From contig OZ243938.1 in NCBI GenBank assembly GCA_965214095.1, forward strand, positions 4,352,001 through 4,416,000: 64,000 nt of DNA. Reading direction: 5' to 3'. This DNA comes from Candidatus Poribacteria bacterium (GTDB lineage Bacteria > Poribacteria > WGA-4E > WGA-3G). Within the stretch, counting starts at the first letter, position 1. Each line of letters begins with the position of its first letter. Below, piece after piece: positions 23,741 through 54,585 of the stretch. Below the pieces are notes generated by a model that worked only from the letters and a program-made list of their open reading frames with translations, did no database searches and was not told the origin of the DNA. A program made the position numbers and the translations under genes.

Positions 23741-23812
23741 GCGGGAGTAGCTCAGTGGTAGAGCTCCACCTTGCCAAGGTGGAGGTCGCGAGTTCAAATC
23801 TCGTCTCCCGCT
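23741..23812 (+). tRNA. tRNA-Gly(GCC)
   Basis: GCGGGAG acceptor stem; CCACC-TTGCCAA-GGTGG anticodon arm; GTTCAAATC T-loop; CCA not encoded. Confidence 0.95.
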
Positions 23813-23864
23813 TTTATATAAAAACATAATTTGTACGTGTGCAATCTAATAACGTACACTACAA

Positions 23865-23939
23865 GGTGGCGTAGCCAAGTGGTAAGGCCGAAGTCTGCAA
23901 AACTTCTATTCGTCGGTTCGATTCCGACCGCCACCTCCA
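23865..23939 (+). tRNA. tRNA-Cys(GCA)
   Basis: GGTGGCG acceptor stem; CTGCAAA loop; GGTTCGATTCC; encoded CCA. Confidence 0.95.
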
Positions 23940-23950
23940 TCATGCATTAT

Positions 23951-24024
23951 GGGCGGTTAGCTCAGGTGGCTAGAGCGTTTGCTTGACATGCAAGAGGTCA
24001 CAGGTTCAAGTCCTGTACCGCCCA
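23951..24024 (+). tRNA. tRNA-Val(GAC)
   Basis: GGGCGGT acceptor stem; TTGACAT loop; GGTTCAAGTCC. Confidence 0.95.
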
Positions 24025-24860: not shown

Positions 24861-25080
24861 TGCCATTGTATTAACCCAATAATCTTGTTGAAGTGGATTC
24901 CATCCCCTATTTTTCTTGTTTGAGGCCTTCTAACCCCGAACATAAAGAATTACTGCTAAAATATGTGCTAAAACATTGAAGAAATCTATCATGAAATACA
25001 ACACATATACCACAAGTATATGTAACTGTGGGTGTCCCGATCTACTAAGACAATAGTATATAATTTTGGAGACCATTTTC

Positions 25081-38357: not shown

Positions 38358-38557
38358 TTTGTTCTCCAATATATGAATAAAGTTTGAATTATCACAATTC
38401 AACAAATAAATACTCGTTTAACTTCTTATCAGGACAAAGAACTATTGGACAAAGGTGCGCAAACCAGACATGTATGCTTGGTAAACTACACACTAATTAT
38501 ACAAATCAAATAGACTTCATCCATTCTGTCAAGATAAATTGACATCAGAACAATTAT

Positions 38558-38797
38558 TTATAGTGAACATTGAAAATAATAGTACAAAGTACCTGTAGGA
38601 GCGATCTCCGAATCGCGATTTAACTCAGTGGTAATTGGGAATCGGAGTTTCTTCCTACATCTCAAAATGTCCCATTATAGTGAATTATAAATATAAGTTG
38701 ACACTTTTGACCCACGGTAGGCGAGGTTTCCTAACCTTGCCGATGCAGTGTGTTCAAGTAATTTCAAAATATACTATAATTCAAAAGTTTACTATAA
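38558..38797. repeat. Nested MITE-like elements (outer element with GTAGGAGCGATCTCCGAATCGCG REP; inner 38675-38779)
   Basis: Outer ends TTATAGTGAACATTGAA / TTCAAAAGTTTACTATAA; inner matches the copy at 10616. Confidence 0.75.
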
Positions 38798-39151
38798 AAA
38801 AATAATATTTACTGATAAACCAGAGCATTTTGGGGGTGCTCTTCTCTGTATATTTGATGTAGGATTGAATGTTTTGGGGGAGATTGTTATTTGTGGTATT
38901 TTGGTATCACAAAGAGCAATTGTGGGAATAGTAGTAGGTTGGATATTGAAATTAACGTGTGTTGTGATAAATACACATGCTGGACATCTCTCATCCGTAT
39001 GTAATGGTTCACTGTCTTCATGCTCATGACAATGTTCGTGTTCAAGGTCATGTTCATGGCAGTGCATGAACGGCATCAGACTGAGAAGCAATACGTGACA
39101 AATTATTCCAACGATGAACAGTATGTTCGTAGTATATTTAAGTTGTTTCAA
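38792..39151 (-). CDS. DUF2946-like His-rich, CxxC, RAPP-motif protein (putative metal-responsive leader)
   Basis: N-terminal hydrophobic segment, HCHEHDLEHEHCHEH, CPAC, C-terminal RRAPP. Confidence 0.7.
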   Translation of the reverse strand: MKQLKYTTNILFIVGIICHVLLLSLMPFMHCHEHDLEHEHCHEHEDSEPLHTDERCPACVFITTHVNFNIQPTTIPTIALCDTKIPQITISPKTFNPTSNIQRRAPPKCSGLSVNIIFL

Positions 39152-39235
39152 CTATCCGGACCTATCTGAATTTTTTGGTTAATGGATATATTATAATATA
39201 TTAATTGATGGATTGCAATATTTTGTGATGCAAAC

Positions 39236-39475
39236 CAGGGTTATTTAGTTTTCGGTAATTCTGATAGATTTGTTCACATATCAATATAAAGCAATGCATA
39301 GTAGTAGGCACACTCCGTGTGCCGTATACCTTAAAGCACAAGATAGACGGCACACGGAGTGTGCCTACTACCATGAACATTTATGAAGAAAAGGAGCGTG
39401 GGTCTAAACGCAACTCATACTATAAACTTTCAGCAATGCCGTTCAGTTGATATTTCTTAAAACTAAATAATCCTG
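39236..39475. mobile_element. 240-bp MITE with REP doublet cargo and near-perfect 9-bp TSD
   Basis: CAGGGTTATTTAGTTTT / AAAACTAAATAATCCTG (16/17); flanks GATGCAAAC / GGTGCAAAC. Confidence 0.75.
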
Positions 39476-39602
39476 GGTGCAAACAGATTTTCATGGATTT
39501 TTTTAGCAATATATGATAGAATATCTATACATTTATAAAAAATATGTCATAATATATAAAGTGTAATATACTTTCGTTAATAATTTAAAGGATAATTTCT
39601 AA

Positions 39603-39944
39603 ATGCCAATAGACACAGTTACTTTGCCACCAGGACACTATATTATTGCCGACCCTGATTATTATAAGGATTATGAACCTTACGCCTATTTTTGGACTGG
39701 TGGAGATGGTGCATTCTACGATAACTTAGAAAATTGTTATTATGTAGATTCTGCAATGCTATCAGTATTTCAAGTAGAAAATAAACCACAAAATGTCCCT
39801 GAAGGAACACACTACTTCAATTTCAAAACGCCATGGAAAATTGACTTCAATCAACATGGGGTTTTAGAACAACTCAAAATCACAGTTCTCTCATTCAAAG
39901 ATATCAGTCCTGATTTTTTCGAACCTATGGTTTTCAATAGTTGA
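39603..39944 (+). CDS. Hypothetical protein upstream of dndC
   Basis: AAGGGA RBS; aromatic-rich, DP.Y and TGGDG.F.D. Confidence 0.6.
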   Translation: MPIDTVTLPPGHYIIADPDYYKDYEPYAYFWTGGDGAFYDNLENCYYVDSAMLSVFQVENKPQNVPEGTHYFNFKTPWKIDFNQHGVLEQLKITVLSFKDISPDFFEPMVFNS

Positions 39945-40037
39945 TTTACTTTCGTCCGATAACATTGTTTGTTTCTAATCCAAATGAAACGTCAATCTGT
40001 AACGGAACGTTTTTCTTTTGAAGGAAGGTACGGAAAT

Positions 40038-41444
40038 ATGGCAGATACATCTTACAGTATCTTTGATACACGCACTCCAGAAGACATTCACCAAGAAATA
40101 CAACAAGTTTATCTTGAAAACGCGCGTCCTTGGGTAATTGGGTACAGCGGTGGAAAAGATTCTACTACAGCACTCCAACTAATATGGTATGCCCTTTCAG
40201 AATTACCGCCAGAAAAGCTTGAGTTTCCTGTTTTTGTGGTGTCTTCTGATACGCTCGTTGAAACTCCTGTCATCGTAAGTTACATAACGGGCACGCTGGA
40301 CAAACTTGAAGCAGTTGCGCGTGAAAAAAATATGCCTTTTCATACACAGATTGTCCGGCCAATTACTGAGGAAACTTTCTGGGTCAACTTGATTGGGAAA
40401 GGATATCCTGCTCCATATTCGCGATTTCGGTGGTGCACTGACCGAATGAAAATAAAACCTGCAAACCGGTTTATTTTGGATAAAGTTGCAGAATATGGTG
40501 AAGTAATTATGGTACTGGGTGTTCGTAAGGGGGAGAGTAATACACGTGATCAAGTTTTAAGTCTACACAGTATACAAAACTCTCTGCTTATGCGACATAC
40601 TACATTACCGAATGCTTATGTTTATGCACCTATTGTTAATTTTTCATTAGAGGATGTCTGGATGTACCTGTTATCCAATCCATCCCCTTGGGGAGGTGAC
40701 AATAGACAATTAGTCACTCTCTATCGAAATACGAATGCTCAAGGTGAATGTCCACTCGTCGTAGATGAAACTACCCCTTCCTGTGGAAATAGCCGCTTTG
40801 GATGTTGGACATGCACTGTTGTAACAAAAGACAAAGCAATGGAAGGTTTGATTGATAACGGAGAAGATTGGATGCTGCCTTTGCTGAATTTCCGAGATTT
40901 CCTTGCAGATACCCAAGATCCTGAAAAAAAGCATGAAATTCGCGAACATCGTCGTAGCAACGGAAGAATAACGTTCGATGAGAATGATAAACTCATACGT
41001 GGTCCCTATACCCTTGACTTTTGTAAAGAACTATTGACAAGACTGCTTAAAACGCAAGAAAAAGTTCGTAAAGACGGTCCAGACTCGGATATGAAACTCA
41101 TCACTGACGACGAACTTGAGGAAATTCGCAGAATCTGGAGAACCAATCGCCAAGATTGGGAGGATGCAGTACCACAGATTTATTCTGAAGTCGTCGGTGA
41201 ACGAGAGTGGATTGCTGACGATACAACGGCTTTTACTGCATCTGATAAGGAGTTGTTATCAAAAATCTGTGACGAGAATGGAGTGCCTGTTACACTTGTG
41301 GCAAAATTGTTAGATACTGAACGTCAGATGGATGGCATGAGTCGGCGCTCAGGAATCCAATCCAGAATTGACACTATTTTCCATGAAGATTGGCGTTCTG
41401 AAGAAGAGGCCCGTAATAGCTTAGATGGTAGTGTACAACAATGA
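40038..41444 (+). CDS. dndC: DNA phosphorothioation sulfurtransferase DndC
   Basis: PWVIGYSGGKDST, SDTLVE, RWCTDRMKI, GVRKGES, CPLVVD..TPSCGNSRFGCWTC. Confidence 0.95.
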   Translation: MADTSYSIFDTRTPEDIHQEIQQVYLENARPWVIGYSGGKDSTTALQLIWYALSELPPEKLEFPVFVVSSDTLVETPVIVSYITGTLDKLEAVAREKNMPFHTQIVRPITEETFWVNLIGKGYPAPYSRFRWCTDRMKIKPANRFILDKVAEYGEVIMVLGVRKGESNTRDQVLSLHSIQNSLLMRHTTLPNAYVYAPIVNFSLEDVWMYLLSNPSPWGGDNRQLVTLYRNTNAQGECPLVVDETTPSCGNSRFGCWTCTVVTKDKAMEGLIDNGEDWMLPLLNFRDFLADTQDPEKKHEIREHRRSNGRITFDENDKLIRGPYTLDFCKELLTRLLKTQEKVRKDGPDSDMKLITDDELEEIRRIWRTNRQDWEDAVPQIYSEVVGEREWIADDTTAFTASDKELLSKICDENGVPVTLVAKLLDTERQMDGMSRRSGIQSRIDTIFHEDWRSEEEARNSLDGSVQQ

Positions 41445-43453
41445 TTCTCCACAAACTCACACTTAATAATTTCGGTTTGTTCCGTGGTCGGCAAACTATT
41501 ACACTCACCCCATATAACAGTAGACCTATAATCCTCATTGGTGGCATGAATGGTTCTGGTAAAACAACTTTGCTTGATGCAGTCAGGCTTTGTCTCTACG
41601 GTAAACGTTCCTTAGGTTCTCGTGTATCTCCTAATGAATATCATGAATATCTCGCTGCAATGATCCATCGCACTCCATCTCAAAAAATACAATTGAATCA
41701 AGCATCGGTCTCACTTGAGTTTGAATATGCACGGGGTGGTGAACGAAAACTCTGTAGTGTTGAACGTGAATGGAAACAATTCGGAAAGAGTAACCGTTCT
41801 GTAAAAGAGGGTCTAACATTCAGTGAAGACAAGAGTCAGAATGTAATGTCCGAAGCATCACACTTGCAAGATCATATCAATGAACTTATTCCAGTTGGTG
41901 TATCACAATTTTTCTTTTTTGACGGAGAAGATATTCAGAAATTGGTTGATGACACAAGCCATGATGAATTTCTTGCAGATTCAATAAAAGCATTGCTTGG
42001 AATTAATTATGTGGAAAGGTTACAATCGGATTTACGAATATATGCAAACCGATTGATCAAACGAGATAGTCCAGAACCTGTTCAAACAGAAATAGAAGCA
42101 ATAGAATGTGAAATCTCTTCTCTACAATCGTCTCTATCAGATGCAGAAGATCTTAATAAAACACTACATGCTGAAATTGAGAAATTAGAAGCACAGATTG
42201 AACGTCAAGAATCACGCATAGCTTCTGAAGGTGGTCTTTATGCTAAGAAAAGGGATAAGTTTATTCTACAGCAAGGACAACTCCTTGCAGATATCGAAGC
42301 ATTGGAAAATGACATTCGGGATTTTTGTGAAGACATATTCCCATTTTCATTAGTACCGGAATTACTTGGTAAGTTAAGAGATAGACTGATAAAAGAGATT
42401 GAATTGGATGAGTGGGAGTCAGAAAAACGTGTTTTGAAAAAACAGAATGATGAATTACTTGAAACTCTTGCCTCTGCTATACTATGGGAGGATGCTTCCT
42501 TAAATGATGCACAGATTAAAGCTGTTCGTTCCAAACTCTCTCCAATTTTGAAAAAACGAATTGAACGTCCAAAGGAATTACGCGGATTCAAGAAAATCCG
42601 GGACCGTTCACCTTCTGAATACGCAAATCTATTTGAGTGGATTGATGCGTGTCTAGACGTTGTTCCTACAGAATTTGCTGAATTGAACAATACATTGAGA
42701 GAAACACAATCTGAATTAGAAAAGGTTGAGGCGTTACTACAGAGAGCTCCAACAGAAGAAGTGCTAAAACCAATGATTGAAAAACTATCTGAATTAAATC
42801 AGAAACTTGGTCAGTTAAACAAGCAAGTGCAAGAAACAGACGACTCAATCCACTCTACATCCTATCAACTTGATGTTGCTGAACGTAAACTTGATAGATT
42901 GCGTTATAATCAGCAGCTTGCACAAGAACATATTCAACGCCAAGGACGGGTAAACGAAGTGCAGTCAGTTCTTTCCAAATATACAAGTCAACTGTTACAA
43001 ACAAAATTGTCAACACTAGGTAATGCTATCGTTGAGAGTTTCAATCAACTATCACATAAAACGAATCGAATTAAACATGTCGAAATTGATTCCCAGACGT
43101 TCAAGGTAACCCTTTATGATGCGAACAACAATCCGTTGTCAAAAAATGAATTGTCTGCAGGTGAAAAACAGATATATACAACAGCTTTATTATGGGGATT
43201 GGCAAAAACATCTGGAAAACCACTCCCAATGATTCTTGACACACCCCTCGGACGTTTAGATACCAGTCACCGCAAACTTCTTGTTGAACGTTATTTTCCG
43301 AACGTTAGCCACCAAGTCATACTGCTCTCTACTGACACTGAAATTGACGAACATTTACTCTCACTTTTGGAACCTTGTGTCTCACACACGTTCCATTTAG
43401 AGTATCAAAAATCAGACGAACACTCCGACATTAAAGAGGGTTATTTCGGGTAG
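41441..43453 (+). CDS. dndD: DNA sulfur modification ATPase DndD
   Basis: LIGGMNGSGKTT, FFFFDGE, LSAGEKQ, LDTPLGRLD, SHQVILLSTDTEI; ATGA overlap with dndC. Confidence 0.95.
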   Translation: MILHKLTLNNFGLFRGRQTITLTPYNSRPIILIGGMNGSGKTTLLDAVRLCLYGKRSLGSRVSPNEYHEYLAAMIHRTPSQKIQLNQASVSLEFEYARGGERKLCSVEREWKQFGKSNRSVKEGLTFSEDKSQNVMSEASHLQDHINELIPVGVSQFFFFDGEDIQKLVDDTSHDEFLADSIKALLGINYVERLQSDLRIYANRLIKRDSPEPVQTEIEAIECEISSLQSSLSDAEDLNKTLHAEIEKLEAQIERQESRIASEGGLYAKKRDKFILQQGQLLADIEALENDIRDFCEDIFPFSLVPELLGKLRDRLIKEIELDEWESEKRVLKKQNDELLETLASAILWEDASLNDAQIKAVRSKLSPILKKRIERPKELRGFKKIRDRSPSEYANLFEWIDACLDVVPTEFAELNNTLRETQSELEKVEALLQRAPTEEVLKPMIEKLSELNQKLGQLNKQVQETDDSIHSTSYQLDVAERKLDRLRYNQQLAQEHIQRQGRVNEVQSVLSKYTSQLLQTKLSTLGNAIVESFNQLSHKTNRIKHVEIDSQTFKVTLYDANNNPLSKNELSAGEKQIYTTALLWGLAKTSGKPLPMILDTPLGRLDTSHRKLLVERYFPNVSHQVILLSTDTEIDEHLLSLLEPCVSHTFHLEYQKSDEHSDIKEGYFG

Positions 43454-43459
43454 GGTTTT

Positions 43460-43822
43460 ATGCAGTTAAACAGAATTCATATCTCAGAAGATTCACGTCA
43501 TAAGCTCAGCATTCTGAAAGGAAGGACAGGATTACTTCCGAATGTTCTCAGCAGAATCGGATTGATGCTTTCCCTCGCAGAATCTAATGAACCCGAACTT
43601 GATGCAGATACATCAGATGGATCGGAATTCAATCGTTTTACGTTGATGGGAGAATGGGATCCGCTGATTGTTGCATTATTGGAGGAAAAAGGGATTGATA
43701 ACGGTATGTGTGAGGATAATGAGATACTTGTAAAATATTTCCGTGCACATTTAAATCGTGGGGTTCGTTTGCTTTACGGTCGGGTTAAGAGGTTAGAGGA
43801 TTTCGGAAATATTTTGCCTTGA
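43460..43822 (+). CDS. dndE: DNA sulfur modification protein DndE
   Basis: LKGRTGLLPNVLSRIGLMLSL, EFNRFTLMGE, FRAHLNRG; follows dndD. Confidence 0.9.
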   Translation: MQLNRIHISEDSRHKLSILKGRTGLLPNVLSRIGLMLSLAESNEPELDADTSDGSEFNRFTLMGEWDPLIVALLEEKGIDNGMCEDNEILVKYFRAHLNRGVRLLYGRVKRLEDFGNILP

Positions 43823-43862
43823 GGACAGAAGGATTTGCCTCCTAATTCATGATTCCGAGACT

Positions 43863-45608
43863 TTATAATCGACTTCTGTTTAGTAATTCGTGAATTTCTT
43901 TAATACTTCCACCTCTCTTGCTAGGTAAGTTTCTTTGCGCGGAGTGATAGGCACCTGGATAAAATACAACGGCAGATTCCTTAACTCGTCCCCTGTTATA
44001 TGTGGTATAAATGTTATGTTTTATCTTACGTAGTTCCGCTTCCACTTGTTCTAATGTTAACTGTTTATCTACAAACGTCCCTAACAATCTTATGAATGCT
44101 CCCATATATTTAGCACACATCAGCAGCGAATCTTGATTTCCCCAGTCTTCAGAAAACACACTCTTAACTTGCGAAAAATAACTCTCTAACAATGTTCCTA
44201 CATTTTGGATAAGTATGTCATAAGTTTCTTCACCCTCGTCCGTACCTCCTATGCGTTCACCTATAATATTTCTAATAGCATTAAAACTCTCAAGTTTTGA
44301 GATACGAGCTAATTCTTCAATTACGGAAATAATTGGAATCGGTGTTTGGTCAAACTGATTTTTCTTGATAAATGCTTTTATCGCAAATATTCTTGCAAGA
44401 ACACCGTTAGGTTTAGAATCACATGTTTTTAGGACTTTTGCTGCAACAGATTCTGGTGTCTTTACATCAAGGACATCATACGAAATGAGAAGGATTAAAT
44501 CCCGTTTAACCTTGGTTTGCTCTCTGTTAATGGTGATGAAGGTTTGCGCTGCATAGCGGTTTATTTTTTCCGAGTCCTTTGTATTAAACTTGATCGCAGT
44601 CACAATCAGTTTTGACTCTCTCCTAACTTGTTCATCATCAGATAAAGTGTATGAAAACAAACGGTGTTGACCATCAATAACATCAATTGAAGCATATTCA
44701 AAAGGGATATGTAACCCATTTTCATCAATCTTACATTCTTTAGACAAGACTAATGTTAGATTAGTTGGAAAAGTAATCCTAGAGTTATCATTTATAAAAC
44801 CTGCTAAATTCTCTAATTTTTGGTGACTTAAAAGTCTTTGATAACCACTACTTGTTTTAGGAGTAGAATCATCAATTGATGTAGAGCGTTTTGCAGATAC
44901 AGTAAGCGGTTGTCCTTGATAACGGGCAACTCGGGCAACTCGTAAAAGCTCATCAGGTGTAAAAATCGCTACTACAATGGTAGCACGGGCTTGACCAGAA
45001 CCAAGGCTAATGTTAGTAAGTTCTAGGCATTTTCTAACTGGTAGAGAGTCACCTAAAACAGAATCTTTTAGATCTCTTGGTGTAATTTTCTGTGAAGCAA
45101 AAAACTCATATTTCGCTGTAGATTTAATAGCACGTTCAAGGTTTTTAAAATATTCCCAGTTTTCTTCATCAAAAATATGCAAACAATCTGTTTCAGGAAA
45201 ATCTGTTGGAGATATCTTTTGGATTGTTAATTCGCTGCTGGTTCCTATATACAAGTATCGCCAAGTTGATACACCGGTAAAGTTTGGTAGTTTATCTTTT
45301 GGAATTCCTTGGAAGTGAGAAAATAGTTTCAGTTTTTCTAATTGACATTCGTTGATTAATTTACAGTGTCTAATAAAACTTTTTATCTTTTTGCTGGGCT
45401 TACTTCTTTCAGTGGTAGTTTCAATTAGTATACAAACTCCCTTTTCCAAACAGACAATGTCAATCTCCAGGTGTCCGCTTGGTGATTCCTTGGGATAAAG
45501 ATTGCGGAGTGGAATTTGTCCGTGAGAACCGTAGCATTCAATCCCCATACCTTTTAAGGTCTTCAGTACCTCTCTCTCAAATCGCTGTCCTTTTTTGTCT
45601 TTTGACAT
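43863..45608 (-). CDS. DGQHR (DndB-like) domain protein with N-terminal PD-(D/E)xK-like nuclease domain
   Basis: GQRFEREV...EIDIV...ILIET; YQRLL, FPTNL, VIDGQHRLFSY, FITINREQ. Confidence 0.8.
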   Translation of the reverse strand: MSKDKKGQRFEREVLKTLKGMGIECYGSHGQIPLRNLYPKESPSGHLEIDIVCLEKGVCILIETTTERSKPSKKIKSFIRHCKLINECQLEKLKLFSHFQGIPKDKLPNFTGVSTWRYLYIGTSSELTIQKISPTDFPETDCLHIFDEENWEYFKNLERAIKSTAKYEFFASQKITPRDLKDSVLGDSLPVRKCLELTNISLGSGQARATIVVAIFTPDELLRVARVARYQGQPLTVSAKRSTSIDDSTPKTSSGYQRLLSHQKLENLAGFINDNSRITFPTNLTLVLSKECKIDENGLHIPFEYASIDVIDGQHRLFSYTLSDDEQVRRESKLIVTAIKFNTKDSEKINRYAAQTFITINREQTKVKRDLILLISYDVLDVKTPESVAAKVLKTCDSKPNGVLARIFAIKAFIKKNQFDQTPIPIISVIEELARISKLESFNAIRNIIGERIGGTDEGEETYDILIQNVGTLLESYFSQVKSVFSEDWGNQDSLLMCAKYMGAFIRLLGTFVDKQLTLEQVEAELRKIKHNIYTTYNRGRVKESAVVFYPGAYHSAQRNLPSKRGGSIKEIHELLNRSRL

Positions 45609-45645
45609 TATTTATTTCCTAACATCCAAAATTTCCAACTGAATT

Positions 45646-46101
45646 CTAGATAGAATCGTCTTGAATCCAATTCGCCAATAAATCAAGAAGATTGTCAATT
45701 TTATCACCAGGCATCTCACGTACTTCTTCCTCTATTTGTAGAATTCCCGCATTAGCGTATTCCTCTGCAATCCTTAAAATTTCGTTTCGGTCAGTTAATA
45801 CCTCAACTCCGTTTGTCTCAGTAACAGCCAATGCATCAAGCAAAGAAACTTCGTCTGTTGAAAATACTTGCCAATTGAAAATATCAGTTCCTTTTGCTAA
45901 AGGAATTCGTTCTTGATTTTTATATCCTAAAAATGTAGCTGACATGAAAAGGTTTTTCATGTTTTCAAAAGGTCGTGTATCTGTGTCCTTTTCTGAGATC
46001 TCTCTATCAGGACGTTTAGCTAGTTCTTGGTACGTTGAATGATGAGACTGATCAATAGAAATACGATATTGTTCTCTTGACTGTTGTTTAACATTTTTCA
46101 T
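45646..46101 (-). CDS. pbeD: PbeD-like small phosphorothioation-associated protein
   Basis: PF..MK.LFM.A..LGY, IAEEYANAG motifs; position after the SMC-like ATPase. Confidence 0.65.
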   Translation of the reverse strand: MKNVKQQSREQYRISIDQSHHSTYQELAKRPDREISEKDTDTRPFENMKNLFMSATFLGYKNQERIPLAKGTDIFNWQVFSTDEVSLLDALAVTETNGVEVLTDRNEILRIAEEYANAGILQIEEEVREMPGDKIDNLLDLLANWIQDDSI

Positions 46102-46111
46102 TATTATACTC

Positions 46112-46245
46112 CTAGTGCTAAGTCAAGTGTTAACTGATGGATATAATAGTATTTGGGAATCGGAGTCCCCTTCTACAATAAGTGGACAGTCGGTAGGAGC
46201 GATCTCCGAATCGCGAACTACAATAAAATGTTGACTAAGCACTAG
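46112..46245. repeat. MITE-like element with REPs between pbeC and pbeD
   Basis: CTAGTGCTAAGTCAA / TTGACTAAGCACTAG (14/15); GTAGGAGCGATCTCCGAATCGCG shared with about 38595. Confidence 0.75.
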
Positions 46246-46271
46246 CCAGTTGAGATACCTTATATTCATTT

Positions 46272-48224
46272 CTATGGTATACGTTTTATTGTAGTCGTCG
46301 TGTTTTTCAGATCTTCCTTAGTGAATTGCAACACATATTCTGCTCCAATTGATGACTCAAGTTTTGTCCGTGCATCACCATATAATTCTTCGTCTGTGAC
46401 AAATAAAACTAATTGATCCGCAATATCGGGAAAGACATCAACTATATTTTCTCTGTGTTCTTTGGAAAGTCTACCAAAAGGTGTGTCCATTACAATTGGA
46501 AAAGGTTCATTTTCCAAGTTTGGGATCATTCTCTTAACTGCCATTTTTGCAAGTGCGCCTATGAATGAGAGACTGAGAATCTGACGCTGCCCAGCTGACA
46601 TCTCAGGGAGCACATCATCACCAGAAACATCAATTACTAAAAGCTTATAATTTTCTGTGAGGGTAATTTCTACAAAATGGTCTGCATTTCTAACAAGACC
46701 TTTGAAAATTGGTTGAACTTCTTCTTGAATTTGTTCTCGCATATTTGCTGCATGCATCTCGTATATTTCAGCCATCGCCGAAGAAGCTGCATTGGTAAGT
46801 TCATAGGAACGTTTCAAAAGTTCTGTTGCAGTACTTAAACTTTCTTCCTTCTTTATATCTTCATCCAACTGGCTAATAATTCGATCAATTTCTTCAATTC
46901 GTCCTTTTGTAAGACTAATTTTATTTTCATAATCCCGTATATCCGATTCGTATCCCTTTCGGGCTGCTTCAAGCTGAGTGACCTCGTCATCATCAAAATT
47001 ACCAAGATTCTCCTTAATATTTTCTAAACGGATTTCATTTGTCTGGATTTTAGATTCTAACTCTTGGGCATTTCCCAAGGAGGATTTCAATTGCATTGGA
47101 ATTTTTTCCACCTCATCGTTCAACAATCTTTTTAAATTATTCTCAGTTTCGCTTATAGCATATTTCTCCGAGTCTGAAGTCACAGTATTCTCAAGTAAAT
47201 TTACGATATTTTGATATTCAATGCTTTCACTAGGAATTGGACGACCACACAAACAGTTAGTTTGACATAAAAGATCTTTCAAAAAGGCAGTAGGAATCCT
47301 ACTTGGAATATCATTTTTCTCAATTATTTCTAAGCATTTAAATATAACAGGTTTGGCCAAAGGAAAAAATCCTTTGTTAGCAAGAGCGCGTATTTCTATA
47401 CGACTATCTTCTTTATTATCTTTTAGTTTTTGTAATTCTAGCTCTATACTATTTCGTTCTTGGGCAAGTTCGCGAGATGATGCAATTGTTTTTAGTCTGT
47501 CATCTACATCTTGCTTTAAGTTTTTTGATGCCTCAATTTCAGCCTTTTTTTTCTCTATATCCTCGCAAAACTTGTCCCGCTGAGATTGTCTGTTTTCTCT
47601 CTCATCAAGTAATACCTTTAAATTACCTGTAGAATTTCGTTTAAGTTCTCTACGGTACTCTGAAGCGATATTTGTTAGGTGCCTCCGGCCTCGATCAATC
47701 TCTTCAATTCTAAGGACGTTGCGCACTGCATTCTGGATTTCCTCTTCGTTACCGGGTTTAGTAAAGTTATAAATCTGTTCCCCATCAAAAAAGAAATGAA
47801 CACTTACATCTTCGGGAATTATTGACTTAATCCGATCTGAGGCATCATCTTCCGTATGTTTACGTTTTAATCCGAAAGGATTATTACTTTTTAACAAAAA
47901 TGTTGTCTTATTATCTCCAAATGTAGATCTTTTTGCACAGTACTCATTTTCTCGATAGGTAAATCCGATTTCCACCAAGGTTTCAGCAGAATTATTTTCC
48001 CTCAAAGCACGTCTATTTTCTAACTTTCCAATATTGCCAAATTTTCTTCGCACAGACTCAGTTCCGTAAAAACACCAGTGGCAAGCCATAAATAATGAAG
48101 TCTTGCCAGCACCATTGGCTCCATGAATCACAGTAACATGACGAGATTCATCAGTTGTAAAGTAAAGAGACTGTTCACCGTAATAGGATCTAAAATTTTT
48201 TAATGTAATATAGTTAAGTTTCAA
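46272..48224 (-). CDS. pbeC: PbeC-like SMC/DndD-type ATPase
   Basis: HGANGAGKT, FFFDGE, CLCGR hook, MSAGQRQ, MDTPFGRL. Confidence 0.75.
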   Translation of the reverse strand: MKLNYITLKNFRSYYGEQSLYFTTDESRHVTVIHGANGAGKTSLFMACHWCFYGTESVRRKFGNIGKLENRRALRENNSAETLVEIGFTYRENEYCAKRSTFGDNKTTFLLKSNNPFGLKRKHTEDDASDRIKSIIPEDVSVHFFFDGEQIYNFTKPGNEEEIQNAVRNVLRIEEIDRGRRHLTNIASEYRRELKRNSTGNLKVLLDERENRQSQRDKFCEDIEKKKAEIEASKNLKQDVDDRLKTIASSRELAQERNSIELELQKLKDNKEDSRIEIRALANKGFFPLAKPVIFKCLEIIEKNDIPSRIPTAFLKDLLCQTNCLCGRPIPSESIEYQNIVNLLENTVTSDSEKYAISETENNLKRLLNDEVEKIPMQLKSSLGNAQELESKIQTNEIRLENIKENLGNFDDDEVTQLEAARKGYESDIRDYENKISLTKGRIEEIDRIISQLDEDIKKEESLSTATELLKRSYELTNAASSAMAEIYEMHAANMREQIQEEVQPIFKGLVRNADHFVEITLTENYKLLVIDVSGDDVLPEMSAGQRQILSLSFIGALAKMAVKRMIPNLENEPFPIVMDTPFGRLSKEHRENIVDVFPDIADQLVLFVTDEELYGDARTKLESSIGAEYVLQFTKEDLKNTTTTIKRIP

Positions 48225-48384
48225 GTTTCTTTATCTCCTCATGAATAATCTGCTCAATTGTATTTTTTATGCCTTTGGGCTTTATCATATCTATCCTTTC
48301 AAGTTCTGCTTTAAGTACTTTATCAATTACATTCCTCACTTCACTAGGTAAACTGTCCATATATTCTTCTATCTTATTTTTCAT
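48214..48384 (-). CDS. pbeB: PbeB-like 56-aa protein (not in ORF track)
   Basis: MKNKIEEYMDSLPSEVRNVIDKVLKAELERIDMIKPKGIKNTIEQIIHEEIKKLET; TAATG overlap with pbeA stop, GGAGG RBS, overlaps pbeC start. Confidence 0.7.
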   Translation of the reverse strand: MKNKIEEYMDSLPSEVRNVIDKVLKAELERIDMIKPKGIKNTIEQIIHEEIKKLET

Positions 48385-48706
48385 TATGATCCTCCTAATA
48401 TACCTAATAGATTATATATTTTAGCATAGTCATGTATATTAACACGTGCTTGATTCTTATTCAATGCTAATTCCGCAAATTCGTTAAACCTTCTCAATTC
48501 CTTTTCAACTATTTTACGCTCTGTGTCAAATGTTGAACTTGAATATTGCTGGTACCCAGAAGGTGGAACGGCAATTAGATCATGTATTTCAGCTTTTTCT
48601 TTGCCGTGTGCTTTACGAAGAATTCTACCCCGTCGTTGTATAAACTCCTTCGGATTACTGCTACTTGCAAGAATGTATGCCGTTTGGGTACTAGGCACAT
48701 CAACAC

Positions 48707-50194
48707 CATAGGCGTCAATTTAGTGATTTTTTGCTGCATTTTCAAGGTGTTCTAATGTTGTGTCTCTATTAGCACGTCTCTCAATGTAGCACCCATTTTG
48801 GAAAGCGTGTTTTATTTCATCAAAAGTTTGCCGAAAAGACATTATAGACTTGCGGAAACCTATTGCAAGTGTGCGTGCGAAGGTGCTAATAAGTTCTGCT
48901 GTTTTTGTTAGACTATGTTTTAGACATCGCCAACCGACCCTTAACATGATCCAGTGCCGCATAATTGCGACGATGAGTTTTGCATATAACTCACATAAGA
49001 TTCTATATGGCTTGTCGCTACGGGAGGTATCAACTTTTCCAATGCTTTTGAAGCACTTGAACATCAACTCAACCTGCCATCGGATGCGTGCGACAGCACA
49101 AATCTGTTCAGCAGTCAGATGGTCTACTTTTATATTAGTAATGTAGATATTCCATCTTGCGAGCTGAAGTCGTTTGGGTGAAGGTTTCGTATACTTCCGC
49201 TTTGCACGATGTTTTATCTCCTTAATACGCTGTTGGGTTTCTGTTTCTGAAAGTCTTTGAACAACTAATCGTGCTTTGAGACGCTTGTTTTTACCTATAA
49301 AGATTTGTTTGTCCTTGAAGTTATTAGAACCCTTCTTGAGCCATTTTAGCAAACAAAAAGGGTCACCTGTTTCATCATAGAGAAAACACTGGACTTTGTA
49401 GCGTGATATCCAAAAGACGTTTGCATCGGAAAGTCTTTTGAAGGTATCAAGTGAATAATAGCCGAGGTCTGCGAGGCGCAAACTGCCGGCGGGTAGCATG
49501 TCAATCTGCTTTTCAATAGCACTATCAGCGGTGATACCATTGGTCAGTTCAAAGTGTTCAAAAGTGCCTGTGGCACTATCAAAACGCAGGTGGAGTTTCA
49601 CGGCAGCTGTGTTCGGTTTATTCTTTTTGCTTCCACCTTCCCAAGTTTCGTGGAGCACATCAGGGAGTGTAATCCAAGAACTATCTTGTAAATAGACACC
49701 AGTGAACTTTTCAAGGAGCGGAAGCGTTTGCGGGTCGGCAGAAATAACCTTGGACGCAGTAGCATCAAGGATAACTTTCAGGGTCTCTGCTGCTTCAGAT
49801 GTAAATCGTTGTTCAATGGCTTGTCGTGAGATTGAAATCCCCAGCACACCAGCGGTTTGCGCAAGTTGTGTATAGGTGGCATCTGGGTTTTCTAACCAAG
49901 TCCAAATGAGTATTTGAGCAAAACGACTACCGTTGAGTTTACAACTTCTTTTGACAAAACCTGTATTGAGAGCTGCATCATTGGCTATAGTTGTAAGAAT
50001 ATGTTGCATTTCTTTGGGAACTTGTGATAATGTATTCATTAGGAAACACCTCTTTGTAGACCATAATAAATCTATATCTACATTATATATGAGGTGTTTT
50101 CATTTTTACAGAAGTTTTATTTCATAATTTATACTTCCTCTGATTAAAAGTTGACACTTATCGGTCTTGGTGCATCCTTAAATTGACGCCTATG
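48707..50194 (-). mobile_element. IS4-family element, 1488 bp, flanked by 20-bp direct repeats
   Basis: 16-bp perfect TIR CATAGGCGTCAATTTA; DR GGTACTAGGCACATCAACAC at 48687-48706 and 50195-50214. Confidence 0.92.
48720..50039 (-). CDS. IS4-family transposase
   Basis: QDSS, KLH, LADLGY, ITN, RWQVELMFK (DDE/YREK-like). Confidence 0.92.
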   Translation of the reverse strand: MNTLSQVPKEMQHILTTIANDAALNTGFVKRSCKLNGSRFAQILIWTWLENPDATYTQLAQTAGVLGISISRQAIEQRFTSEAAETLKVILDATASKVISADPQTLPLLEKFTGVYLQDSSWITLPDVLHETWEGGSKKNKPNTAAVKLHLRFDSATGTFEHFELTNGITADSAIEKQIDMLPAGSLRLADLGYYSLDTFKRLSDANVFWISRYKVQCFLYDETGDPFCLLKWLKKGSNNFKDKQIFIGKNKRLKARLVVQRLSETETQQRIKEIKHRAKRKYTKPSPKRLQLARWNIYITNIKVDHLTAEQICAVARIRWQVELMFKCFKSIGKVDTSRSDKPYRILCELYAKLIVAIMRHWIMLRVGWRCLKHSLTKTAELISTFARTLAIGFRKSIMSFRQTFDEIKHAFQNGCYIERRANRDTTLEHLENAAKNH

Positions 50195-51985
50195 GGTACT
50201 AGGCACATCAACACCTTCATCAAGACACTTCATTGCCACAAGTGCCTGAAGATGGCCTGACGCGAACATGTCCAGCAATTCTAGCCTTTCAGACGCGGGT
50301 TCCTTTGCAGTAAATTTGTTAACACGTAAATCTAAATTTGCTAGTAACGAAAGCACTAAGTCAATTTGTTTCGGTGCACAGTAAAAAAGTGTATGATGAA
50401 TCATGTCTGTCTTTTCAGTTAATAACTCTAATAAAATTGGCAACTTGTTTTCAGCGTTGTTTAGCAGCTTAGCACGTTTTCTCAACAAGTGCTTAAGTGG
50501 TTCATTTGGCTCATCAGGTCTTTTCCTATAAAATTGCTTGGAAATTTCTTCAGTGAGTTTTTCATATTTTTCAAGCTCTGCCTCAGTTAATTTGACCAAG
50601 TGAGGATGATATTCATATTGACATAAGAAGCCTTTTTCAATTGCTTTATCAAGGGGAAAAGAAAAAACAACTTCGCCAAAATACTCTTTTAAAGCATCTG
50701 TGCCTTCATCATCAAACCATCTTTCTAAAGTCGCAGTCAAACCTAAACGGCAATCAAAAACGTCTAACAACTTTTTTCGGCTACTAACTGCTCCAAGGTG
50801 GTGTACCTCGTCTGCAATCAAAACAGCACCTTGTGTTTTTTTAGAAAACAATTTCTGCATAATTTCGCTAGTAAAGGTTTTCGCAGTCGTAATGACACAT
50901 ACAACATTGCGATTGTGCCAATTGTACTGGACTGATGCCTTATTAAACAGTTCAACCCATGAAGCAGAACTTTTATAAGCCAAGATCGGTTCAAATTGAA
51001 ATTTTACAACTTCCTTATGCCATTGGTCAACGAGGTGCTGAAATGGACACACAATTAAGACAAACAGCCGTTTCTTTTCTTCTCTAAGTTTTGAAAGAGC
51101 AGATAGAGCCGTGAATGTCTTACCAGTTCCAGTTGCCATTTCAAAGATGCCACGACATCCATTATTAAACCATGCATCAATTGCTTGAGTCTGATAATCT
51201 CTTAATTTTATACTGTTTGGTAAATAAGAAGCGTTCTCTTCAATAATCTCCTGAGTTTCCTCTGTAGTATTCTGCTCAGTTTCATAGACAGTTTGATAGA
51301 CCAATATATCTCTTCTAACGGCAGTTGGAAAATCTATTATATCTAATTTATCTGTTGTATTATTCCACAATCGTTTAAAGTTGTCAATTTTTTGTTGAAC
51401 ACGTTCTTGTGCATCATTCCATGACCAATGCACATCAATAGACTCGAAATTATTTATTAATCCACCAACAGTTTCATTTGAAGAACCAGTAAATGCTACG
51501 GCATAGTTATCGTCATCTATAAATACACCGATTTTTTCGTGATATATTCCTCGGGGATAAGTGTCGTCTAAGTCGGAGGGTAGTGCGATTCTGATATCTA
51601 AATATTCATGTGCAATTAGCCAAGTGAGTAACTTCAATCTATCGTCAGAGACATCACAAAATTCATATTCAGAAGTGGTAGTTACTTTCTTTTTCCTCTC
51701 TTCATAGCCTTTTTTGATAGCCTCAATGTCATCCGCCATTAATTTAGGACCTGTTACTAAACTAATATGTCCTCCATTTTGGATAAATGTGGGTAATCCT
51801 TTGACATTTTGCTGGAGACCATTACTAGTAAAGTATGCCACCGCGCGACAATATCGCGTGGCATTTTTTAGACACGGAGTATAGAAATCCTTAATAAGTT
51901 CTGACTTATCGGAACGGTATTCGTGTTTGAGGGAAAGTTCTCTAAGTGACATATGTTTACAATCAGTTCTTTAGTAATTGCCATA

Positions 51986-52014
51986 ACTTTAGCAAAATAC
52001 ACAAAAAATGTCAA
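51986..52014 (-). promoter_or_regulatory. Putative sigma70 promoter of the pbe operon
   Basis: Minus strand TTGACA-17 bp-TAAAGT with TGn. Confidence 0.55.
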
Positions 52015-52041
52015 GATTTTATTAATTTTTTAGGCACAATT

Positions 52042-54585
52042 CTACTTCCGCAACAACATCCGCCGCGTTGCACGAAAATCACCCGCAGAAAAGACATAAA
52101 AATACACACCACTCGCAACATACTCACCACGATCATTCTTTCCATCCCAATAAGCAGCACTATCCCTACCAAAGTATGTTCCGGCAGACCGATGTCCCAA
52201 AACTAACTTGCGGACAACATTGCCACGGACATCATAAATCGTTATATTCACATCAGCATCTGACGCTAACTGATACGGAATCCACGTCTCAGGATTGAAT
52301 GGATTTGGATAGTTCACCAACAACTGGGTCTCTGATGGTATCAACACAGCAAGAAGTTGTTCAAGTATCGTTATACCCTTGCTAATTACTTCATCTCTTA
52401 CAGGTAGACCTTTCGCCTGATTAATCCAATGTTGGACATCAATTGGGTTGAGATCTGAATTGTGGGACGAGGACGTTGGTGAAGCTGAATCACCATTATT
52501 CAACTCATTCACAACCAAAAGCAAATCAATAATATCAACAACACCGTCCCGATTCACATCAGGATTCGGAATGGCGTTACCGATAACGGTTTCCCCAAAG
52601 TTTGCAGCAACAAGCACAAGATCAAAATTATCTACCGTGCCATCGCCGTTCACATCAGACCGGTTGACTACGGACGACGGTTCTCCTGCCTTTAACACAT
52701 AGTCTTGTTGTGTGATATTCCCATAGACATCAATAACTTGTAAGACAATAGTGTTGAGTGGATATGACGTTAACGATGTGATGTCAAATTCTACAGCAGC
52801 ACTTTGAGTATCTATACGTTGACAACTATGTAATTTTATACCAGTCGCAGGATCATCACCGGTTGTAGGCACAAGCAGCTGCACCTGATGAATACCATCA
52901 AGATCAGTAATCTGAAATATAATTGAAAAATCAGACGCATTTGGGGGATACGTATCAGAAGTGAGAATATGCATTGATGTCAAGTTGTTGAAAGTGATGT
53001 TTTCTTGATTGAAAAATCGACTAACACTCAACCATTCTGTAGCACAATATGAAAACTGATAAGGATTAGTACCATAAGACATGATGTAACTATCGTCTCG
53101 AAAATCGTGGTCTAAACCGAAAGCGTGTCCAAGTTCATGTGCAGTAACGATGGTGCCGACTTCCTCATCAAAACAATCACCGGATGCAGGAATAACAGCA
53201 TATCCCCCATTAGATTTCACTGCATGCTCTAATCCACGCCACAGACTGCCACCAACACCACACACATGTTCTTCTTCAATTGCCTGACTGCTTACCTCCG
53301 CTACGATAAAATAGACATGTTTTTCCAGATCAAACTGCTTAGAAACTTCATCCAGTATTTTGTTAGTTGTATCTGTATGATAGTAGAAATCAATGAAGTT
53401 TCCATCAACGCGATATATGATCGTTTGGTCATATTCATCCTTTTCAAAATCAAATGTCTTTCTACCAAATCCGTTGAATTCCATTTGGTCAGCGTACAAT
53501 GTTTGAACACCTTTGATGAGACTATCCAGTTTCATCCACATATTTGTTTGTGCAGTGCGGTCACTTGGAATGAAATAGATAATGCGCACCATTTCGGACG
53601 ACACAGTATGAAAAGATGTAATATCCCAGAGTCGTAAAGTGCCATCGCTGCCACCGCTCGTAAGGTGTGTTCCATCAGGTGAAAAATCTGCTGTAAATAC
53701 CCAACCATCGTGTCCATTTAACGTGGTTAATTGTTCTCCAGTGCGTGTTGTCCACAGGTTTACTACTTCATAATCCGTGCTTGCCAAAATGCTACTATCA
53801 GGTGAAAAACTCAGTCCTGTGACTGTCGCTGAGGTAGGTAATGTACCTATGAGTGACCAACTCAGTAGATTCCACAACTTCACACTTCCATTTAAACCGC
53901 CACTTGCAAGGAATTGGTTGTCAGGAGAAAACTTCAATGCAGAAATAGAATCTGCATCCCCTCTAAATTGAACTATATCTTGTTGTGTTTGAAGATTCCT
54001 TACACTAATCTGTCCATCGGTATCTCCATAAGCAAGATATTTACCATCAGATGAATATGCAACAGCAAAAATCCAATCACGATGTCTAATTGTCATTATC
54101 TCTCTGAGTGTGTGAATATCCCAAATCTTGAGGTGTAGTCCTGCTGAAACTATCTTCTGTCCATCTGGAGAAAAGGCAACGGCTTTGATTTGTGATCGGT
54201 ATCGGTCTGTAATATGTGAGAGCGTGGCAAGATGTCTTTTACCAGAGACATCCCATAATTTCATGGTATAGTCATCACTTCCGCTAACCAGATACTTGCC
54301 ATCTGGTGAAAAAGCAATAGAATTAACTATATCTCGATGACTTCCTAATGTTGTAGATCCATCTTGTTCCAAATCCCATAATTTGATGGTGTGATCTCCA
54401 CCTGCACTCGCGATAAGTGACGAATTGATAGGAGAATATGCAACAGAATATACATTACCACCGTGGGTTAATGTCGTGTGTTCTTGCGCAATGATAGTAA
54501 GTGGAAATATTAAGAAGATTAGAAGGACGAGAAGATATTTTTTGTAATGCATGGCTGTATAATATTCAATATAGACTATCATCAT
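52042..54585 (-). CDS. Secreted WD40 + zinc metallopeptidase + dockerin-like + C-terminal sorting (FlgD-Ig/T9SS-like) domain protein
   Basis: About 7 WD40; HELGHAFGLDH; DVNGDGTVD/DVNRDGVVD; NYPNPFNPETWIPYQL...ASGVYFY. Confidence 0.88.
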   Translation of the reverse strand: MMIVYIEYYTAMHYKKYLLVLLIFLIFPLTIIAQEHTTLTHGGNVYSVAYSPINSSLIASAGGDHTIKLWDLEQDGSTTLGSHRDIVNSIAFSPDGKYLVSGSDDYTMKLWDVSGKRHLATLSHITDRYRSQIKAVAFSPDGQKIVSAGLHLKIWDIHTLREIMTIRHRDWIFAVAYSSDGKYLAYGDTDGQISVRNLQTQQDIVQFRGDADSISALKFSPDNQFLASGGLNGSVKLWNLLSWSLIGTLPTSATVTGLSFSPDSSILASTDYEVVNLWTTRTGEQLTTLNGHDGWVFTADFSPDGTHLTSGGSDGTLRLWDITSFHTVSSEMVRIIYFIPSDRTAQTNMWMKLDSLIKGVQTLYADQMEFNGFGRKTFDFEKDEYDQTIIYRVDGNFIDFYYHTDTTNKILDEVSKQFDLEKHVYFIVAEVSSQAIEEEHVCGVGGSLWRGLEHAVKSNGGYAVIPASGDCFDEEVGTIVTAHELGHAFGLDHDFRDDSYIMSYGTNPYQFSYCATEWLSVSRFFNQENITFNNLTSMHILTSDTYPPNASDFSIIFQITDLDGIHQVQLLVPTTGDDPATGIKLHSCQRIDTQSAAVEFDITSLTSYPLNTIVLQVIDVYGNITQQDYVLKAGEPSSVVNRSDVNGDGTVDNFDLVLVAANFGETVIGNAIPNPDVNRDGVVDIIDLLLVVNELNNGDSASPTSSSHNSDLNPIDVQHWINQAKGLPVRDEVISKGITILEQLLAVLIPSETQLLVNYPNPFNPETWIPYQLASDADVNITIYDVRGNVVRKLVLGHRSAGTYFGRDSAAYWDGKNDRGEYVASGVYFYVFSAGDFRATRRMLLRK

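Follow-up and report, generated by a model that had tools for sequence, protein, structure and literature searches.

A 64,000-nucleotide stretch of a Candidatus Poribacteria genome (assembly GCA_965214095.1, contig OZ243938.1, positions 4,352,001 to 4,416,000; hereafter the window) carries, between 39.6 and 52.0 kb, two gene sets on the plus and minus strands that converge on each other. The plus-strand set includes dndC, dndD and dndE of a phosphorothioate (PT) DNA modification system, and the minus-strand operon runs, 5' to 3', through a 602-amino-acid (aa) open reading frame (ORF), an IS4-family transposase gene, and ORFs of 104, 56, 650, 151 and 581 aa (Table 1). As judged from its genes, the locus is a bacterial Dnd-Pbe PT defence island of known type in which one gene, pbeA, is broken by an insertion sequence (IS). 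This core is already known, and only the last gene of the minus-strand operon, which encodes the 581-aa protein and is referred to here as the fifth gene, is an extension.

An initial annotation of the window had reported dndCDE converging on a minus-strand operon, and all of the ORFs that it described are present. Its limits for the locus (40038-51952) fit overall, but the dndC frame is already open from 39969. The start codon of dndC is uncertain and may be the TTG at 39969 or the ATG at 39984, the initial annotation having used 40038.

Gene content of the Dnd-Pbe island

The window was represented by 55 non-overlapping ORFs of at least 90 aa, all of which were compared with Pfam; the ORFs of the locus and the 56-aa ORF were also compared with PADLOC and NCBIfam, and 27 of the rest with PADLOC.

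Table 1. Features of the island, with window coordinates and the evidence for each assignment (SF2, superfamily 2)
Feature	Coordinates	Strand	Assignment and evidence
113-aa ORF	39603..39944	+	25 nt upstream of dndC; perhaps the first gene of the dnd operon, membership uncertain
dndC	39969..41444	+	PAPS-reductase-like sulfurtransferase; PADLOC DndC E 2.2e-201; TIGR03183 562 bits (cutoff 290); Pfam PAPS_reduct
dndD	41441..43453	+	ABC/SMC-like ATPase; PADLOC DndD E 8.6e-207; TIGR03185 534 bits (cutoff 246)
dndE	43460..43822	+	Pfam DndE E 6.6e-23; TIGR03184 80.4 bits (cutoff 71.85)
Fifth gene, 581 aa	43863..45608	-	Nuclease-like, DGQHR and C-terminal domains; stop 40 nt from dndE stop; 37-nt gap to pbeD
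pbeD, 151 aa	45646..46101	-	TIGR04062 ('DNA phosphorothioation-associated protein 4') E 8.8e-18, 64.9 bits (short of the curated 74.25)
pbeC, 650 aa	46272..48224	-	CxC-type ABC ATPase; PADLOC PbeC E 5.1e-122
pbeB, 56 aa	48214..48384	-	Between pbeA and pbeC; assigned by position and size
pbeA 3' remnant, 104-aa ORF	48384..48698	-	PADLOC PbeA positions 590-670 of 672, E 2.4e-34; helicase motif VI and C-terminus
Direct repeat copies flanking the IS	48685..48707 and 50193..50215		Perfect, 23 nt
IS4-family element, 1,485 bp	48708..50192	-	NF033592 (IS4 transposase) 196 bits (cutoff 115); Pfam DDE_Tnp_1
pbeA 5' part, 602-aa ORF	50144..51952	-	PADLOC PbeA positions 1-594 of 672, E 1.9e-211; HKD nuclease domain and SF2 helicase motifs I-V

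The products of dndC, dndD and dndE all score above the curated NCBIfam equivalog cutoffs, and their top PADLOC matches are Dnd models. On the E-values of the dnd and pbe profile matches, chance is excluded. The dndC and dndD genes overlap by 4 nt, and 6 nt separate dndD from dndE. Together, DndC, DndD and DndE would write PT into host DNA. Neither a class-V aminotransferase nor a DndA match was found among the window ORFs, and a tblastn search of the window with the DndA of a related locus (L008) found nothing; dndA is present in 8 of 13 related loci that carry dndC. PT synthesis would therefore need a cysteine desulfurase encoded outside the window, and IscS is described as able to serve as the desulfurase in other PT systems (PMC10853773). 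Similarly, canonical DndB had no match among the 55 ORFs or the 56-aa ORF. The absence of dndFGH reported by the initial annotation held up, as none of DndF, DndG or DndH had a PADLOC or NCBIfam match among the window ORFs scanned.

The 113-aa ORF that precedes dndC has no Pfam, PADLOC or NCBIfam match, and an Atlas search with it gave nothing usable. It is kept at the same position in two related Poribacteria loci, with 53% identity in L001 and 45% in L002 by tblastn. Farther upstream, the AT-rich gap before the dnd operon (GC 0.34) holds a perfect inverted repeat of about 25 nt, with arms at about 39300-39324 and 39348-39372, part of which was flagged by a terminator scan (about 39300-39372). 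Promoter and terminator scans of 38400-52600 found no enrichment overall, with 39 promoter-like matches versus 44.9 in shuffled sequence and 9 terminator-like matches versus 9.1. A separate observation concerns the C-terminal ~45 residues of DndC (residues 426-471; window 41244-41381), which match Pfam Sp-DndD, a 'small protein found in certain Dnd systems' (E 1.7e-9), as well as the PADLOC PbeB model (E 8.6e-5). Neither Sp-DndD nor the PbeB model is matched by the separate 56-aa PbeB.

On the minus strand, the 602-aa and 104-aa ORFs are, from the profile positions that they cover, two halves of one pbeA gene for an HKD nuclease-SF2 helicase. In TIGR04095 ('DNA phosphorothioation system restriction enzyme', 451 positions), the larger ORF covers positions 3-360 and the smaller 355-451, and, as the gene is interrupted, each piece falls below the cutoff of 600 (412.6 and 127.3 bits, respectively). 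The 5' part also matches Pfam ResIII, Helicase_C and, weakly, PLDc_2, and its translation contains the HKD signature HEKIGVF...GSSN. The Pbe assignment, which had been made from motifs and gene order, was borne out by the PADLOC profiles, which matched both PbeA (E 2e-211) and PbeC (E 5e-122). By contrast, the 'SMC ATPase' of the initial annotation was a misnomer. The 650-aa protein carries a CQTNCLCG motif mid-protein, in the middle of a coiled-coil region, and is thereby a CxC-type ABC ATPase; this feature is described as what distinguishes PbeC-type ATPases from both DndD and true SMC proteins (Krishnan et al. 2024, PMC10853773). It also falls below the DndD equivalog cutoff (TIGR03185, 212 bits versus 246).

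The 56-aa and 151-aa ORFs fit PbeB and PbeD because their sizes and order match those of the haloarchaeal system, in which PbeB is 66 aa and PbeD is 152 aa (Xiong et al. 2019, PMC6459918). The 56-aa protein has no profile match, the PADLOC PbeB model being silent at E<=10. Nevertheless, all 12 related loci examined have an ORF of 56-76 aa between pbeA and pbeC, and the PbeB homologues at this position in L001-L003 are 52-71% identical to it. PADLOC at E<=10 likewise returned nothing for the 151-aa protein. A PbeD profile, made from this protein together with nine syntenic homologues, retrieved 1316 proteins with the label PF27807, several of which are named 'dnd system-associated protein 4', and in the Atlas the 151-aa protein scores 0.95 to clusters of the TIGR04062/PF27807 family. 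Judging by size and position, TIGR04062 would correspond to the published PbeD. PbeD has been stated to be a DndE cognate (PMC10853773), a kinship that was not reproduced by hhalign of shallow alignments (10 versus 11 sequences; probability 0.3% over 20 columns). The convergent operon would supply PbeABCD, comprising the HKD nuclease-SF2 helicase PbeA, the small protein PbeB, the CxC ABC ATPase PbeC, and PbeD. In haloarchaea, DndCDE and a desulfurase install PT, and PbeABCD is reported to block PT-free virus in a PT-dependent manner (PMC6459918).

As the initial annotation had suspected, pbeA is split by an IS, whose IS4-family transposase gene (48720-50039) lies on the same strand as the pbe operon and has an intact frame of 439 aa. 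The terminal inverted repeats of the element (48706-48727 and 50174-50195) are imperfect, with 91% complementarity. The direct repeats that flank it are likely to be a target-site duplication of 21-23 bp, and both copies encode the same PbeA residues, in the helicase motif V region (...GVDVPST...). Read from upstream, the pbeA frame continues into the element for 16 codons and then meets a stop. In contrast to this, pbeA is a single continuous ORF in L001-L003. The element occurs only once in the window, and the 80 related loci lack it. Because the flanking 23-nt repeats are perfect and the transposase frame is intact, the insertion is likely to be recent, and it is concluded that PbeA has been truncated by a recent IS insertion. 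With pbeA interrupted, the Pbe module as encoded is probably weakened.

The fifth gene and its genomic linkage

The initial annotation had further proposed an extended variant of the system with a fifth operon gene. An extra gene does exist, but it is the 581-aa nuclease-DGQHR gene; the 151-aa ORF was also considered as the extra gene and was rejected, as its product is PbeD. Three domains make up the 581-aa protein: a PD-(D/E)xK-like nuclease domain (residues 1 to ~190), a DndB/ParB-type DGQHR domain (~200-450), and a helical C-terminal domain (~460-581). The central domain scores 79.2 bits against the DGQHR domain model TIGR03187 (cutoff 58.85; residues 209-499), with a literal DGQHR at residues 312-316. 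Against Pfam DndB (PF14072), the protein reaches 20.8 bits, which is below the cutoff of 29.1 and covers only profile positions 28-158 of 338, and it has no NCBIfam DndB-equivalog match at E<=0.01. At E<=10, PADLOC returned only DpdB (E 5e-5) and Csx1 (E 0.02).

The family to which the protein belongs has 129 homologues at E<=1e-3 in a collection clustered at 90%, mostly of 535-595 aa, and 268 clusters at 50% identity with E<=1e-30. Its members, if named by their source at all, are called "DGQHR domain-containing protein". Among 27 members (25-92% identity to the window protein), Pfam DndB matches 25, with a best E of 5e-12, and GmrSD_N (DUF262) matches two (best E 0.011; 16.3 bits versus a cutoff of 33.2); no HNH family in Pfam matches the protein family. 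Residues D50, E63, Y256-Q-R258, F280-P281, I311-DGQHR-L317 and N361 are invariant in all 27. In 18 genome-derived N-terminal domains (17-69% identity), E48, D50, E63 and K74 are invariant.

AlphaFold models of the 581-aa protein are confident (predicted local distance difference test, pLDDT, of 87.3 for the whole and 87.9 for residues 1-195), and the order of secondary-structure elements in the modelled N-terminal domain fits the alpha-beta-beta-beta-alpha-beta core of the PD-(D/E)xK superfamily. When the PDB was searched with Foldseek, the whole model best matched ParB/Noc/sulfiredoxin folds as well as PD-(D/E)xK nucleases, but never at E<=1e-3. For the N-terminal domain, the top matches are exclusively PD-(D/E)xK nucleases (R2 endonuclease, BstEII, SduA, McrC, Can2, MspJI, PspGI and Hjc), with a best E of 3.6e-3. 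A predicted complex of the 581-aa protein with PbeD gave no answer (score 0.00, mark 0.32), and speaks neither for nor against binding.

Linkage of the fifth gene was assessed in a single scan with one genome per species, in which the best 80 loci of 251 relatives were taken with up to 10 kb on each side of the match. Near full-length homologues occur in 21 of these loci (L001-L021), which were searched with the window proteins, the PbeD profile, and DndB and DndA from two loci, and with Pfam where there were no matches. In 14 of the 21, from several bacterial phyla and one archaeon, dnd and/or pbe-type genes adjoin the homologue. Both pbeA/pbeC and dndC/dndD are present in 11: the two closest Dnd-Pbe loci, which come from Poribacteria metagenome-assembled genomes (L001 and L002), and loci from Roseivirga (L004), Pedobacter (L005), Rubrobacteraceae (L006), Ca. 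Onstottus (L007), Leptolinea (L009), Chloroflexia (L010), Anaerolineae (L013), Isosphaeraceae (L014) and Trueperaceae (L016). In L003, pbeABCD is present and the contig end cuts the fifth gene. The Bathyarchaeota locus (L008) has dndBCDEA and a divergent PLD-helicase operon, and the Latescibacterota locus (L011) has, on one strand, a truncated PbeC-like ORF, a 156-aa ORF, the fifth gene, dndB, dndC, dndD and dndE. The fifth-gene homologue in L008 (10019-11744, plus strand) is itself in two pieces, overlapping ORFs of 210 aa and of 402 aa, and may be frameshifted or a pseudogene.

Of the 12 loci with a PbeD-profile match, 11 have the fifth gene next downstream of pbeD on the same strand. The exception is L007, in which the fifth gene comes after dndE, with the pbe operon convergent on it. 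The five-gene minus-strand operon of the window recurs beside dndCDE in other genomes and, with the Pbe profiles matched and the 151-aa protein placed in the dnd-associated TIGR04062/PF27807 family, the link of the minus-strand proteins to Pbe and to dnd that the initial annotation had drawn is upheld. The fifth gene is a recurrent accessory of a subset of Dnd-Pbe islands, always at the junction of the dnd and pbe modules. It was also considered as a replacement for DndB. This was rejected, since canonical DndB (Pfam E 4e-137 in L011) co-occurs with the fifth gene in L008, L009, L010, L011, L014 and L016, that is, in 6 of the 12 loci in which the sequence upstream of dndC can be seen (in L013 it is cut off).

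More distant relatives of 750-800 aa were found next to a different kind of DNA-modification enzyme. In 10 of 10 loci examined (L024, L032, L034, L038, L042, L061, L063, L066, L071 and L078; L064 was left out, as the contig end cuts the gene), the long relative adjoins a DNA adenine methyltransferase gene, of the D12 class in eight and of the MT-A70 class in two. Their N-terminal nuclease and DGQHR domains are homologous to those of the window protein, with 16-24% identity over its first ~250 residues. They differ from it in being longer, in having a canonical D...ExK triad (QIDVV...IECKS), and in having an adenine methyltransferase, not Dnd, as their partner. In the 581-aa protein, D50 and E63 align with the D and the ExK glutamate of this triad. 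On these sequence comparisons, the long ORF and the methyltransferase look like a two-gene restriction-modification module. A nuclease-DGQHR architecture is thus paired with two unrelated DNA-marking chemistries, which fits a restriction partner.

Proposed function of the 581-aa protein and its rivals

By analogy with DndI and SspE, the 581-aa protein may be a modification-sensing, single-chain nuclease effector gated by a nucleoside triphosphatase (NTPase), a reading given a probability of roughly one half. The DGQHR domain would bind DNA and hydrolyse nucleoside triphosphate (NTP), and its response to the PT mark would gate the PD-(D/E)xK nuclease domain, such that PT-free (foreign) DNA would be cut or nicked and PT-marked host DNA spared. 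The presumed elements of this scheme are the nuclease and NTPase activities, PT sensing, and a division of labour with PbeABCD. The same logic has been demonstrated by experiment for DndI and SspE, which rely on a DUF262 ParB-like domain and an HNH nuclease. DndI (DUF262 and HNH) is encoded beside dndBCDE, senses PT via its NTPase domain, and restricts phage alone; like SspE, it joins a ParB-like NTPase domain to an HNH nuclease and acts independently of the larger restriction complex (as described in PMC11662687). Additionally, ParB-type DGQHR/COG1479 domains are reported to be often fused to HNH, PD-(D/E)xK or HEPN nucleases and linked to restriction-modification systems (PMC3632139).

Several observations weigh against a PT-gated nuclease. 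The fold assignment of the N-terminal domain is a consistent trend across predicted structures rather than a formal match, as nothing reached E<=1e-3, and the family profile had no match at E<=1 among all PDB sequences. In Pfam, NERD matched 2 and Hjc 1 of the 27 family members, at E of about 0.04. In the Dnd-linked family, a threonine takes the place of the ExK lysine (E63-x-T65); activity would then depend on the invariant K74, in the next helix, which might substitute for it. PT sensing is proposed purely by analogy, and the lack of a canonical dndB in the window leaves room for a regulatory, DndB-like role. Haloarchaeal PbeABCD, as described, works without a fifth gene, which is thus not required for Pbe defence (PMC6459918). 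Finally, 7 of the 21 near full-length homologues (L012, L015 and L017-L021) have neither dnd nor pbe genes nearby, within flanks that are shorter than 10 kb in L015 and L020. Five of these seven (L012, L015, L017, L019 and L020, from records of Trichodesmium, Microcoleaceae, Cyanobacteriota and, twice, Dapis) lie in a conserved housekeeping neighbourhood. Therefore, the family is not strictly PT-dependent, unless dnd genes are present elsewhere in those genomes.

The same facts can be read in other ways. If the 581-aa protein were a long DndB rather than a restriction effector, it would repress the dnd operon and/or govern PT density in an NTP-dependent manner, and its N-terminal domain would be DNA-binding or dead. 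This would account for the Pfam DndB matches to the central domain in most family members, for the DGQHR motif, which is described as a mark of DndB (PMC4507180), for the threonine in place of the ExK lysine, for the lack of canonical dndB in the window, L001 and L002 alike, and for the position of the fifth gene on the dnd strand, next to the dnd genes, in L007 and L011. However, a full canonical DndB is present as well in half of the evaluable loci, and in L011 it is adjacent and in the same operon. Going by gene order, the fifth gene shares a transcript with pbe, not with dnd, in 11 of 12 loci, and the window protein itself falls short of the Pfam DndB cutoff and of any equivalog match. Moreover, four residues that stay invariant over 18 N-terminal domains at 17-69% identity would be unexpected in a dead domain, and relatives are found paired with DNA methyltransferases, in the manner of restriction subunits. 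A long DndB is therefore considered improbable. An obligate fifth Pbe subunit (a 'PbeE') seems no better placed. Here the protein would be a second nuclease recruited by a DNA-scanning PbeC-PbeD, with no function of its own, in keeping with its regular place directly after pbeD (11 of 12 loci, and a gap of only 37 nt in the window) and with the presence of a pbe-type module in all 13 loci with a visible dndC. Such strict dependence sits poorly with the homologues that have neither pbe nor dnd, with the gene being on the dnd strand in L007 and divergent from the PLD-helicase operon in L008, and with relatives beside a lone methyltransferase gene. In like searches, the family gave 129 matches and that of PbeD 1316, so most Pbe systems do without it.

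A third possibility is compatible with any of these and concerns the locus rather than the protein. The IS may have inactivated the pbe operon, and through polarity the fifth gene too, leaving an orphan PT-modification module that no longer defends and is decaying. The cut at helicase motif V of pbeA by a 1,485-bp element is in line with this, as are published accounts of orphan dnd modules without a restriction partner as common (PMC10853773). On the other hand, pbeB, pbeC, pbeD, the fifth gene and dndCDE are all full-length relative to their relatives, and the perfect repeats and intact transposase frame indicate a recent event. Because the transposase gene reads in the same direction as the operon, the genes downstream of the IS may still be transcribed. 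Promoter-like hexamers lie near the end of the element (48868-48841 and 48745-48717, minus strand), yet such matches are no commoner in the locus than in shuffled sequence (39 versus 44.9). Decay is viewed as less likely than not.

The PT-gated nuclease effector may also be one case of something wider. It is suggested, tentatively, that PD-(D/E)xK-DGQHR fusions are one family of stand-alone, NTP-gated modification readers that have been repeatedly recruited as the restriction partner of Dam-like/MT-A70 methyltransferases and of DndCDE. In islands with a fifth gene, the 581-aa protein rather than PbeA would then read PT and cut unmarked DNA. If true, such a reader-nuclease would account for two things left unassigned in the Pbe literature, the PT sensor and the activity that damages DNA.

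Relation to known systems and other features of the window

The closest described counterpart of the core is DndCDEA-PbeABCD of Haloterrigena jeotgali A29 (PMC6459918), which shares the pbe order A-B-C-D, the dndCDE partner and, as described, the lack of dndB and dndFGH nearby. Its parts also correspond: an HKD/PLD-SF2 helicase, a small protein (66 aa; 56 here), a CxC ABC ATPase, and a protein of ~150 aa (152; 151 here). The window locus differs in its bacterial, Poribacteria-like host, its IS-split pbeA, the lack of dndA in the window, and the fifth, nuclease-DGQHR gene. The PurL encoded in the window has 85-88% identity to proteins named Candidatus Poribacteria. Bacterial systems of this type are already in print, with 235 bacterial pbeAC given in PMC6459918 and tandem DndD- and CxC-centred systems reported for 936 bacterial taxa in PMC10853773, the latter source equating PbeABCD with its CxC ABC-ATPase-centred system.

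As for the fifth gene, its product resembles DndI of Salmonella enterica Cerro 87 (PMC11662687) and SspE in being a single chain that joins a ParB-superfamily NTPase-type domain (D-G-Q-x-R) to a nuclease and is encoded beside a PT operon. In both cases, the protein co-exists with a larger restriction module (DndFGH there, PbeABCD here). In contrast, the nuclease domain of the 581-aa protein is N-terminal and of PD-(D/E)xK type instead of HNH/DUF1524, and its ParB-like domain is of DndB/DGQHR type instead of DUF262; the family has no sequence match at E<=1 among PDB chains, DndI included. Canonical DndB (~340-380 aa, full-length PF14072, upstream of dndC) shares the DGQHR domain and the association with dnd, but the 581-aa protein is ~200 aa longer, owing to its N-terminal nuclease-like domain, and its gene is downstream of pbeD, on the strand opposite to dndC, usually with pbe. 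TIGR04172 ('DNA phosphorothioation-associated DGQHR protein 1'; PMC3226654) is likewise a non-DndB DGQHR family and a dnd satellite. With 37.5 bits against a cutoff of 450, over residues 248-381 only, the 581-aa protein belongs to a different family from this model (381 positions). The Dnd-associated nucleases listed in PMC10853773 are HKD-SF2, HNH-SRA, REase-HARE-HTH, NERD, URI, HEPN and PIN. No description of a PD-(D/E)xK-DGQHR fusion in Pbe/Dnd loci was found in the literature text consulted, and the figures or supplementary neighbourhood tables of PMC10853773 may depict it.

Published accounts of how PbeABCD stops a virus differ: no DNA cleavage was seen in the first PbeABCD study (PMC6459918), whereas a later comparative study argued that cleavage has to take place (PMC10853773). 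In a subset of systems, the 581-aa protein offers a testable candidate for a PT reader or effector, and it would add a third combination of domains to the "ParB-like NTPase plus nuclease" design. The pairing of the long relatives with adenine methyltransferases points to two-gene restriction-modification modules as a wider class that has been little studied. In the housekeeping neighbourhood of the five stand-alone homologues, one flank encodes RNase PH, adenylate kinase and CobO, and the other flank a YfbK-type vWA protein, dCMP deaminase, dUTPase and an intein-bearing ThyX.

Elsewhere in the window are several genes with matches to other defence systems. A UvrD-type helicase (6420-8135, plus strand) has a GIY-YIG domain inserted at residues 132-206 and matches PADLOC GajB best (E 2e-66), with no adjoining GajA gene. 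An Mrr-type (type IV, modification-dependent) restriction endonuclease is encoded at 13658-14566 on the minus strand (Pfam Mrr_cat E 1.5e-37; PADLOC mREase_IV E 1e-62). At 21734-23614 (plus strand) lies the gene for an SMC/ABC-like ATPase whose best PADLOC match is LmuB of Lamassu (E 4e-37); an LmuA partner could not be recognised, and the gene is directly followed by three tRNA genes (23741-24024, plus strand). There is a second mobile element at 16947-18231 (plus strand), in which HTH_Tnp_4 and DDE_Tnp_4 ORFs overlap in different frames, suggesting an IS5-like transposase that is either made by frameshifting or broken. The window also encodes a leucine-rich repeat protein (97-2079, plus strand) and three large WD40-repeat proteins (25066-27357, plus strand; 32199-33254 and 52042-54585, minus strand), one of which has a C-terminal sorting domain of the type IX secretion system type. 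The 32-35 kb stretch, which holds WD40 and CobW genes, has a GC content of 0.49-0.53, compared with about 0.40 elsewhere.

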